Source of the DNA: Eledone cirrhosa
Taxonomy: Eukaryota
Direction: 5' to 3'
Length of the DNA: 64,000 bases
Assembly: GCA_964016885.1 (NCBI GenBank)
Contig: OZ024741.1
Location: 347,138,001 to 347,202,000, forward strand
In this document: positions 1 through 64,000 of the stretch, piece by piece
How the letters are laid out: every line of letters starts with the position of its first letter
Position numbering within the stretch: the stretch's first letter is position 1
The notes under the pieces: generated by a model
Told to the model about the DNA's origin: nothing
Database searches by the model: none
What the model saw: the letters and a program-made list of their open reading frames with translations, nothing else
Program-made: the position numbers and the translations under genes

Positions 1-180
1 TATATATATATATACATATATACATACATATGCATACAGGTACACATACATATATGCACGTATCAGTTTAGCGGCGCTAACGTCGCTTTGTTCGTTTGTA
101 AACAAACTGAACAGCCTGAATTTATGCCATACGGTGTTAAGGCAACCACGTCACCTTTTTGTTCAACACTGACACAGGAA

Positions 181-221
181 CGATGTACTAGTTTCAAGCT
201 TGTTAGCTATCATCAGCACCG
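181..221 (-). ncRNA. Minimal type I hammerhead ribozyme, family A (first of 11 copies in the array)
   Basis: Minus strand reads CGGUG-CUGAUGA-U-AGCU-AACA-AGCU-U-GAAAC-UA-GUA^CAUCG. Stem I CGGUG/CAUCG, intact core, palindromic stem III ACUAGU. Predicted cut between 186 and 185. Confidence 0.9.
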
Positions 222-1112
222 TTTACCCATCTGCCAGATAGTTGAACGTTCGAAAGTATATACTTTCCTTATGAAAATTAACGGCTGAGCAGCCTAATTT
301 GCATATTGAGTGAGTTAAATTGGTCAGGCATACCGAAAACGATAAATTGAAACAAAATGAAAACGAAATTTCATTTCTCACTCTTAGTATGGCACTTACT
401 TAAATGTAAGTATGCATGTATACGTACATACATATATGTATACAGACGTACAGTAGCATGCACATATATATATATATATACATATATACATACATATGCA
501 TACAGGTACACATACATATATGCACGTATCAGTTTAGCGGCGCTAACGTCGCTTTGTTCGTTTGTAAACAAACTGAACAGCCTGAATTTATGCCATACGG
601 TGTTAAGGCAACCACGTCACCTTTTTGTTCAACACTGACACAGGAACGATGTACTAGTTTCAAGCTTGTTAGCTATCATCAGCACCGTTTACCCATCTGC
701 CAGACAGTTGAACGTTCGAAAGTATATACTTTCCTTATGAAAATTAACGGCTGAGCAGCCTAATTTGCATATTGAGTGAGTTAAATCGGTCAGGCATACC
801 GAAAACGATAAATTGAAACAAAATGAAAACGAAATTTCATTTCTCACTCTTAGTATGGCACTTACTTAAATGCAAGTATGCATGTATACGTACATACATA
901 TATGTATACAGACGTACAGTAGCATGCACATATATATATATATATACATATATACATACATATGCATACAGGTACACATACATATATGCACGTATCAGTT
1001 TAGCGGCGCTAACGTCGCTTTGTTCGTTTGTAAACAAACTGAACAGCCTGAATTTATGCCATACGGTGTTAAGGCAACCACGTCACCTTTTTGTTCAACA
1101 CTGACACAGGAA

Positions 1113-1153
1113 CGATGTACTAGTTTTAAGCTTGTTAGCTATCATCAGCACCG
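1113..1153 (-). ncRNA. Family A hammerhead with core mutation GAAA>AAAA (likely inactive); same variant at 2977-3017
   Basis: Plus strand tagttttaag instead of tagtttcaag at positions 1127 and 2991. Confidence 0.8.
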
Positions 1154-61121: not shown

Positions 61122-61155
61122 TTGGTGACGCGCGTTTCGCCACTCATCAGCTCAA
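61122..61155 (-). ncRNA. Ultra-minimal or degenerate hammerhead at the PLE5 3' end (family H)
   Basis: CUGAUGA-GUGGC-GAAAC-GCGC-GUC; palindromic ACGCGCGU; stem II is a single bp and stem I pairs poorly. Confidence 0.55.
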
Positions 61156-62379
61156 GGTTCGATCTGTATCGATCTTACCTGACTCTGTAAACCGCGGCTG
61201 GTCGGACCCCTTGTAATGTTAGTAGAAAATGAATACATGCTGTATGATAAAGTCAGAAGTTCATATGTTGGTCTATAAAGATTGTTTTGATTGGTGGATT
61301 AGTTTGTAGGGATGTTTTTGCCTGTAGTGTATGCGGGGATTGGGTTGGTGATAAGATGTTGGTGACCGTCGCAGGCTGAAGTATGTGGGTGTGTGGGGTG
61401 CCGGTTGTCGCTATACAATCGGCATGTAGCTGTGGGTGATTTTTGTGTGTGGTATGGGTGTGGTGCTGTTGTTTGTGGGAAAGATGAGGTAGCGATGCTT
61501 ATGATGGTGTGATGAATGTGTTGGTGGTGTCAATTTCAATAAGGATATACATACATAGACACACTTAATCTGACAAATACGTTGTATACATACACATGTA
61601 TATATATATATATATATATATATATATATAGAGAGAGAGAGAGAGAGAGAGAGAGAGAAAGAGAGATTGAGAGAGAAGAGAGAGAGAGAGAGAGAGAGAG
61701 AGAGAGAGAGAGAGAGAGAGAGAGAGAGAGAGAGAGAGAGAGAGAGAGAGAGACCGAGTGGAGATGGCGTTGTACAAATAAATATAATTACATACAGACA
61801 CACACACATGCGTTGTTTTGGGAGGGAAGATATGTGTTGGTGATGTTGATGATTGTTGAAGTATGGAGTTGTGCCTCTTGGTGGCGGTGGTGGTGGGTGC
61901 GACAAAATATTAACTGGATCGAATTTTACGATGGATTACAGGCTAAAATATGACATAGGGAACACGGGAAAAACAAGGTTGTAAATGAGGGATGGTGGAC
62001 GAATAGCGATGTGTATGGTGGTGGTGGTGGTGGTGGCGATGGAGTGATATGTTCGACATTATATTTACAGGATCGGATGTGACGATGGTTTACAAGTTAA
62101 AACGTGACAGAGAGGACAGATAGAACACAACGGTACTGATATGAGGGATGTATGGCCATGTGTCTGTTGGTGGCGATGGTGGGGGTGATGGATGCGACAA
62201 GATATTTACAAAATCTGAAGTTACAATGGGTTACATGTTATATAAGAGATGAGGGACGGTGTGGCAAAGCAAAGGTGGTTATCACTACGTTGAGTCAGGG
62301 TTAGTGTGTGGCCCTCGGCCGAATATGTTTGTGCAGAGGTGTTCAACCTGGTGTGTCTACAATTTATAATTATGTCAGA

Positions 62380-63720
62380 CCTAGATTGAAGATATTGTTT
62401 GGAGTCTGAGGGTTTGTAGTATATGTCTGTTTCTATTTTGTTGTTTGTTTTCTTGATGAGGATGTCAAGGGAAAGAGAGTTGTTCATGGCTGTATTCCAT
62501 TGTAAATTGTAAGTTTGTATTGAGTCCATTTAGAAGTGTTTTAAACTCAATCAGTCTTTCTATACTTTCATGCTTGAAGCAGTCGTCCAGATATCTCTTC
62601 CAGTTTGTTTCTGTGTGTAGGTAGAAGTGGTTACCGTATTTGTCTAGAACTTTGCGGTAGAGAGTGGTTTCCAAATATATCATGACAAGGTTGGCGTATG
62701 AGGGGGCTACTTTCGTGCCCATGGCAGTTCCAGATTTCTGTCTAGTATTTGGCATCGAATTCGAAGAAGTTGTTTTCCAAGATGAATTTGAGTCCCTCCA
62801 ACACAAATTCTTTAGGGATGCGCTGGGGAAGTTCACTAGGGAAATTTTCCATCCAGAATTGTATTGACTCTATACCTAGGTTGTGTGGCATATTGGAATA
62901 CAGATTGAAGACATCAAAGGTTACTAGTATGTTATATTCAGTATTAAGGGTTGTTGGGTGGTGGTTGAGCATGTCAATCTCGTCCTTTTTGAAGCTTTTC
63001 ATGTGTTTTAGGAAAGATTCCAGCAGAATATCTAGGAAGTTGCTTAGGGGTGGGTTTCACATGTGGTACCTGCTATTATGGGTCTTAATTTTAGGTCATC
63101 AGGAGAGGGGATATTGATGTAAATATTTGTGGCTTCCTTGCAGGCCCTGCCTATTACTTCGCTTTTGTGTGTTTTGGGGATACCGTATAAGAGGTTGGAT
63201 CTGCTTTTGAAATTGGTGATGTAGTTATATTCCTTATCGGTAAGGCCTTCTTTGTACAGGGGTGTTAGGGATTTTAGGGTTCTCATTATTTTCTGTTGTG
63301 TGTAGTATTTGGCCTTTTCGTAATATGTTTGGTTTTCTAGAGTTGAGAGTACTAGAGTCGTGTAGTAATCTGTCTTCATAATGACTACTGCACTCCCTCT
63401 ATCCGCCTCTTTGAGTATTAGGGTTTTGTCGTTCTTTAGACGGTTAAGACGATTCCATTATTTTTGGCTTAGGTTTGGTTTTTGTTTATGTCTGTGTAGG
63501 TGGTGGTATGGGTAATTAGTAATGTGTTCCCAGAATTGATCGAGTAATTTGTTCTTGCCTTTTGGTGGGGTGTAATTGCTTCTATTTCTGGCTATTGAGT
63601 TATCCTCGTTGTATTTATCGTATATTTGCTCCCTCAGTCTTAGTTTTCTCCAGAATTCTGCAATGTCTTCCTTCATTGCGGGGTAGTTAGGTCGTTGAGG
63701 AGTTGGCGAGTATGTTGATT
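62380..63720 (-). pseudogene. PLE5 reverse transcriptase, frameshifted
   Basis: EADRGSAVVIM, LYGIPKTHK, LRPII, TFDVFNLYSNM, GTAMGTKVAPSYANL, WKRYLDD, DIYYKPSDSKQYL. No GIY-YIG recognised. Confidence 0.9.
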
Positions 63721-64000
63721 TGGTCTGTTATTAATTTTTTAGGAGTTAAATTAACGATTTTTATTACATTTTGTGTCTCCTGTGTGTTTTGTGTCATCTC
63801 GTTACCCTGTGTCTGTGTGCTGTGTCTATAAAATGACTACGGAAGTTGTGGTGGTTGTTGTTAGAGGGTGTGTAGCTGTGGTGTTTGTTGAAGTTAGGTT
63901 GTATCGTGTGGTTGTATTGAGCCTTGCTTTTGTTGTTGTAGGGTGTGTAAACTTGGTGGTAGTTGTAGTAGGGTTGTCTTGTGTGGTTATATTGAGTTTT

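Follow-up and report, generated by a model that had tools for sequence, protein, structure and literature searches.

Type-SGC hammerhead ribozymes (HHRs), whose three conserved blocks follow one another in the order site, GAAA and CUGANGA, have been found to cleave (HRIMA-1 and a variant of it; Eckert et al. 2023, PMC10085705). That study reports them from metatranscriptomes only and names, of those RNAs, just one GCS candidate in the genomes of known organisms. HHRs in the pseudo-long terminal repeats (pLTRs) of Penelope-like elements (PLEs), with palindromic helix III and folding and cleavage as dimers, are in print (PMC4209133; PMC6765202), as are animal non-LTR retrozymes and their proposed mobilisation in trans by PLEs (PMC7229834; bioRxiv 10.64898/2026.07.22.740005); the preprint derives retrozymes from PLE pLTRs and describes them as hijacking PLEs. 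Here we compare with these systems a 64,000-nucleotide stretch of the Eledone cirrhosa genome (contig OZ024741.1, hereafter the window), which has 35% GC, is rich in (TA)n runs and belongs to an assembly of 3.0 Gb.

A preliminary description had read the window as an autonomous/non-autonomous system of PLEs and HHRs, which in our analysis is mostly known biology and partly wrong; what is new is an SGC hammerhead in a genomic retroposon family, family I. The literature searched (hammerhead permutation, retrotransposon, octopus and cephalopod retrozymes, with subscription papers outside its scope) held no genomic SGC ribozyme. We consider it likely that the (TA)n of the window has served as a landing zone for Hydra-type PLEs, for 5'-truncated ends of these and for two families of non-coding tandem units that would borrow PLE enzymes, one of them with an SGC hammerhead predicted to self-cleave. 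The family letters (A, B, C, F, G, H, I, J) are our own and may differ from those used earlier.

Block order, stems and dispersal of family I

Family I had been described as carrying half an HHR, a reading that missed the permutation. At 14 family I loci chosen by DNA likeness alone, all three hammerhead blocks are present in the order S, G, C, as GAUGU-C-CUGUU, GCGCC-GAAA-CAUC and AACAG-CUGAYGA-A-GG, and no GAAA follows the C block. Genome-wide, patterns written for this order gave 777 matches compared with 8 for controls, and 341 compared with 1; a few copies match both, and the family numbers about 1,100 copies. The core features present are CUGANGA, GAAA, UH, A15.1-U16.1 and G10.1-C11.1.

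Across 104 loci, pairing was followed in 108 distinct motifs (L185, L130 and one L117 copy were left out, as was L154, on the wrong strand). Stem I is paired in 493 of 540 cells, against a mean of 406 and a maximum of 427 in 2000 shuffles, with two-sided changes at pair 1 (CG/UA), pair 2 (UA/AU) and pair 5 (UA/AU/CG). In stem III, pairs 3, 4 and 5 are kept in 100, 102 and 93 motifs, respectively, and pairs 6-7 covary. N7 takes all four letters, and H17 is C, A or U. In a 32-row alignment of the family, 93.8% of cells pair, against 30-47% with slid partners, and two-sided cells number 8 against 2.1 when shuffled.

The units, which recur in tandem with periods of 564-804 bp and are 67-91% alike, show no PLE protein match. 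An in-line GIY-YIG end accompanies 0 of the 108 motifs; there are six same-strand matches, and the lone 3'-end case among them is parted from the motif by a TA run. Block order, stems with compensatory changes, lack of coding DNA, dispersal and (TA)n ends are directly established for family I, and the complete hammerhead that it carries, in non-circular SGC order, is predicted to self-cleave. A type II HHR, its 6-bp stem II interrupted by a bulge, was considered for the family and rejected because other subfamilies keep only 2 bp of that stem.

Several observations weigh against this assignment. Both motif copies in the window are damaged: the one at 40270-40328 (stem I partner at 40313-40317, CUGAUGA at 40318-40324) has two stem III mismatches, which are absent from other family copies; at 40271, 40273 and 40297 pooled contigs (three contig sets from one sample) read the pairing letters. 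Kinship among the copies inflates the pair counts, and in pattern-found copies the search patterns themselves fix the letters of the core and the first two pairs of stem III; the core letters are likewise present in the 14 loci chosen by DNA likeness alone. Stem II is only 2 bp long (105 and 99 of the 108 motifs, with a third pair in 3), compared with 5-6 bp in published SGC alignments (PMC10085705), and nothing in family I clearly corresponds to the published stem I-II helix.

It nevertheless seems unlikely that the motif is a hammerhead-like but non-cleaving element that is conserved as an RNA structure or as a signal for protein binding. The 2-bp stem II, together with an upstream segment able to pair along the full length of the stem II strand, would suit such an element, and in Xenopus 8 of 9 predicted retrozyme dimers stayed uncleaved in vitro (bioRxiv 10.64898/2026.07.22.740005); set against this are every core letter and three pairs of stem I that covary in the expected register, and an equally short stem II (U.U plus 2 bp) in family G, which is a coding PLE end.

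Proposed folding of family I and its SGC relatives

Family I shares with the published SGC ribozymes the block order, a short connection between the stem I and stem II strands, the extra nucleotide after A9 and perhaps also a distal stem III that closely adjoins a helix clamping stems I and II; the 5-bp stem I reads AUGUU/AACAU in the published ribozymes and CUGUU/AACAG in family I (PMC10085705). Unlike them, it resides in a retroposon with about 1,100 genomic copies, has the shorter stem II noted above, which an upstream strand may extend, and has a predicted cleavage activity.

In family I, stem III continues as a distal helix of 3-11 bp, and the gap from this helix to the stem I partner is 0-2 nt in 32 of 72 clean motifs. 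The distal helix is preceded by an upstream strand (P0) complementary to the stem II strand, with at least 5 bp in 36 of the 72 (GGCGC:GCGCC, GACGC:GCGUC, GGCCC:GGGCC), a count tempered by a null that is not clean, since at least 5 bp also occur at 66 of 288 control anchors. The distal helix and P0 could stand in for the published stem I-II helix.

In five of six examples the family I hairpins come to -15 to -20 kcal/mol, compared with -2 to -5 for stem I duplexes. In what is the least-supported step of the mechanism we propose, each unit would form a long hairpin and its two flanking arms would dock on the loop of the neighbouring unit, so that cutting would occur mainly in trans and monomers would be spared. 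Because hairpins of this stability would not easily let the arms reach their own loop, docking on a neighbour is the preferred model, with a monomer that opens its distal helix nearly as likely.

The ribozyme acting as a monomer, with the distal part of stem III opening to become the linker as in published cis-cleaving SGC ribozymes, is given somewhat less than an even chance. Co-transcriptional cutting by those ribozymes is nearly complete (PMC10085705), and some family I subfamilies have a distal helix of only 4-5 bp and a linker of 5-8 nt, as opening would favour; others have 9-11 bp and 0-1 nt, and these, like the hairpin and duplex energies, speak against it. A broader proposal, which we hold as tentative and rather doubtful, is a class of SGC retroposons in animal genomes, in at least two organisms, whose hammerhead would be unable to fold by itself; arms of neighbouring units would complete the active site, so that multimers would be cut and circles spared, a form of dimer gating free of palindromes.

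In 118 metagenome stretches, 108 motifs were parsed, of which four have a full stem I; the remaining 104 are regarded as chance. Three of the four represent one repeat of ~125-150 bp, present with differing flanks on five contigs of one data set (L259, L322, L327, L341, L353), with the same SGC architecture and another stem I (CUUGG/CCAAG); it is probably dispersed in the genome of a different organism. Metagenome motif L305 is a single unconfirmed case.

Coding PLEs, their truncated ends and family A

Hydra-clade PLEs (Craig et al. 2021, PMC8557442) and the PLEs of the window (Table 1) are alike in DKT, the CxCx5C linker, the C-terminal GIY-YIG, (TA)n insertion, HHRs in the pLTRs and tandem or inverted structures. 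The window elements differ from them in RWR where the Hydra clade has RWK (in PLE54 and PLE28), in long low-complexity 3' untranslated regions (UTRs) and in that two of the Hydra-type elements show no complete HHR. A Pfam scan found GIY-YIG as the sole domain, in 1 of 17 open reading frames (ORFs).

Four of the five coding PLEs had been said to carry HHR motifs, and a full HHR is found in two only. The pLTRs of PLE54 carry a canonical type I HHR at 53932 and 59828, and PLE24 has a variant with CCGAAGA and ACAGCUGU at 24302 (minus strand) and 27807 (plus strand). GAAA and ACAAUUGU are present in PLE28, with the CUGANGA box absent in 14 of 14 copies, and no HHR was found in PLE16. For the ACGCGCGU element a hammerhead is not supported: most of its relatives read CUGAUCA, with G8 lost, stem II has 1 bp and stem I is absent.

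Some further features of these elements were observed. The PLE28 pLTR (28200-28300, 31210-31310) represents a young family of 96-98% identity that has kept GAAA plus ACAAUUGU. The pLTR and 3' UTR of PLE54 hold long (ATTTTT)n and (ATAAAAA)n tracts at 53432-53805, 58196-58661 and 59515-59701. A broken reverse transcriptase (RT) of another PLE type (MGTKVAPSYA, YLDD) occupies 61755-64000, where no endonuclease was seen.

Table 1. Positions in the window of the PLEs, short families and hammerhead motifs.
Feature	Position	Strand	Remarks
Family A array	1..5329	-	11 copies of a 466-bp non-coding unit, one type I HHR each; stem III ACUAGU
Family B fragment	6969..7165		half HHR lacking CUGANGA, the origin of AAAGAUCUUU; inverted arm
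Family C inverted fragment	8384..8490		cores 8438-, 8444+
Family B	13737..14410		inverted pair of coding-PLE 3' ends; type I HHR cores 13985-, 14214+; stem III AGAACU
PLE16	14716..19100	+	broken Hydra-type element, long inverted duplication
PLE24	24217..27892	-	5'-truncated Hydra-type RT+GIY-YIG, inverted pLTR
PLE28	28072..32219	-	broken Hydra-type RT+GIY-YIG, partial tandem
Family J	32374..32462	+	type I HHR; stem III ACUAAUUAGU; stem II covaries in 6 relatives
Family C	33716..34589		three HHR arms (33851-, 34070-, 34434+); stem III 4 bp, 8-nt loop
Family A	36473..37583	+	two tandem copies and inverted arm; HHR cores 36746, 37217
Family I	39636..40362	+	622-bp non-coding unit, partial tandem between (TA)n runs; type-SGC hammerhead
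Second type-SGC motif	39650..39704	+	stem III damaged
Type-SGC HHR motif	40270..40328	+	S block 40272-40282, predicted cut after 40277, GAAA 40292-40295
Family G	44259..44652	+	3' end of coding Hydra-type PLE; HHR core 44585, stem III ACAAUUGU
Family F	44699..45116		inverted pair of PLE ends; HHR with AUGCGCAU
PLE54	53096..59917	+	Hydra-type RT+GIY-YIG, ORF 54132-56645 (broken by one stop), direct pLTRs
Family A, older copy	59919..60633	-	core 60231 mutated to AUGAUGA
ACGCGCGU element	61095..61185	-	hairpin; hammerhead identity unsupported

The short families were put to a uniform in-line test (same-strand coding DNA lying upstream without an intervening TA run, duplicate loci removed before counting). 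Such DNA lies upstream of B at 13 of 29 loci, of F at 5 of 19 and of G at 11 of 11, and was found for none of 29 loci of A, 13 of I, 24 of C and 19 of H. Families B, F and G are 5'-truncated ends of coding PLEs; in B, the sequence common to the copies reaches 68 to more than 1500 bp upstream, into the RT+GIY-YIG frame. The exact pattern of F has 15,729 matches genome-wide, many as inverted pairs (the family was located by pattern, a DNA similarity search having returned nothing). Family C is probably the pLTR of a Hydra-type PLE, because among 20 loci of one Hydra GIY-YIG end, 8 have C no more than 1.5 kb away (downstream in 2, including the query locus, and inverted upstream in 6) and that PLE has a TA tract within its own 3' UTR; its null result in the strict test counts against this. 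In our lettering, the five non-coding families of the preliminary description are reduced to A and I, with B, F and G being PLE ends and C probably so. That short elements are merely truncated PLE ends, the outcome it had named as fatal to its system, is true of most families other than A and I, which are self-contained tandem units.

The minimal PLE hammerheads of Cervera & de la Pena (2014, PMC4209133) share with the window's a short stem I, the extra nucleotide after A9 and a palindromic helix III, as well as the occurrence of many families per genome, mostly as truncated PLEs, and of inverted pairs separated by 100-700 bp. Nothing substantial sets B, F, G, J, PLE24 and PLE54 apart from that account; several have U.U at the base of stem II. 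A mismatch at the stem II base was observed in place of G10.1-C11.1 in four type I families, A, C, G and F (U.U in A, C and G).

Family A is an ordinary non-LTR retrozyme and fits that description fully. Its 466-bp unit has no PLE protein match, and its arrays lie on many chromosomes at 80-98% identity. In the array at the left end of the window, two copies have G12A and 5196-5329 is the inverted arm; a 12th copy and the (TA)n 3' end adjoin just outside the left edge. Counted past the predicted cut, the 3' ends of family A are concentrated at unit positions 300-319; a larger peak at 220-259 is the internal TA run of the unit. Published non-LTR retrozymes (PMC7229834; bioRxiv 10.64898/2026.07.22.740005) resemble both A and I in their non-coding tandem units with one HHR each, dispersal and low GC; they are described with type I HHRs only, unlike the SGC order of family I.

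The preliminary description had PLE RT/GIY-YIG proteins mobilise the short ribozyme RNAs in trans. For A and I only this is a sensible inference, because they are non-coding tandem units, dispersed, with PLE-type (TA)n ends and no in-line coding DNA; the other short families, being mostly truncated PLE ends, drop out of it. Multimeric transcripts would be cut once per unit and the monomers would circularise. By analogy with PLE biology, RT/GIY-YIG would nick (TA)n and prime inside the RNA, at a site perhaps 80-170 nt past the cut in family I and about 310 nt in family A. Copying of more than one unit from multimeric or circular RNA could yield the partial tandems and inverted 5' arms of A and I, and 5' truncation and inversion the short PLE ends. 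Two points count against this mechanism: no driver PLE was identified for A or I, and insertion by an active PLE in vitro did not need HHR cleavage (PMC11167929).

It is also conceivable, if quite unlikely, that all short families, A and I included, are truncated or locally amplified pLTRs of an unsampled coding PLE, without independent mobilisation. Such an origin is true of B, F and G and probable for C, the 2026 preprint traces retrozymes to pLTRs (bioRxiv 10.64898/2026.07.22.740005), and the sample is limited to 29 A and 104 I loci; yet what lies upstream of each A or I ribozyme is the preceding unit, not an ORF, and the arrays of both families are spread over many chromosomes at the identities given above.

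Motif counts, stem III palindromes and significance

The earlier estimate of about 30 HHRs in at least eight families agrees with our count of 31 motifs in nine (A 14, B 2, C 5, F 2, G 1, I 2, J 1, PLE24 2, PLE54 2), obtained from a descriptor, damaged copies read by eye and families found later. CUGANGA, GAAA and UH are retained in 24 of the 31, and one tandem array of family A (1-5196) supplies 11. Over the window, the type I descriptor gave 21 matches scoring at least 9, while four shuffles together gave one, with a score of 5. The reported embedding in (TA)n with tandem or inverted arms likewise holds, for A, B, C, F, G, I, PLE24, PLE28 and PLE54.

An Rfam scan of the window (E<=5) showed no hammerhead among the 150 of 334 matches listed, which are microRNA look-alikes of AT repeats. 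A scan for all six HHR permutations had a high background (5-8 shuffle matches at a score of at least 10) and failed to pick up the window's damaged SGC copies; its top match only (32382, family J) was taken further. A candidate at 7529 was dropped, having a single relative, without GAAA.

Other repeats were also observed. Family H (8020-8210 and 60675-60920) is a very common TA-inserted element of ~140 bp with a near-fixed 5' start and paired inverted arms; it has hammerhead-like GAAA and GUC blocks with no CUGANGA among the matches listed and is left out of the tally. An 11-base tail motif is common to H and C. More TA-flanked inverted or direct repeats, with no HHR matches, lie at 8595-8891 and 22313-24229, and a dispersed repeat of ~190 bp (7245-7443) has ten more copies at 80-90% identity; we take it to resemble an octopus SINE.

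The stem III loops had been described as palindromic throughout and family-specific, and as a possible self-recognition code for dimeric cleavage. Neither part survives: stem III is not palindromic in B (AGAACU in 29 of 30 copies), C and PLE54, and ACAAUUGU is common to G, PLE28 and PLE24 relatives. The supposed palindrome AAAGAUCUUU (7120) was discarded as that of a single mutated half copy of family B. Homoduplex energies are better than heteroduplex energies for A, F, G and PLE24, and ACAGCUGU and ACAAUUGU differ by a double change that preserves the palindrome, as such a code would predict. We nonetheless regard the code as highly unlikely, for besides the sharing and the missing palindromes, stem I already blocks heterodimers, cross-pairing between families by at most 2 bp except for PLE24/PLE54; the self-complementarity that homodimers need is enough to explain the palindromes.

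Apart from family I, what the window contains is ordinary PLE biology. Type-SGC hammerheads previously lacked a known host or role, and a high-copy genomic family with natural variants supplies both a biological setting and a covariation set. Standard type I-III descriptors miss the SGC order, and ribozyme counts in animal genomes may therefore be too low. If cleavage is indeed gated in trans, this would answer the structural puzzle of the SGC ribozymes, in which stem III is joined directly to the distant I-II helix.

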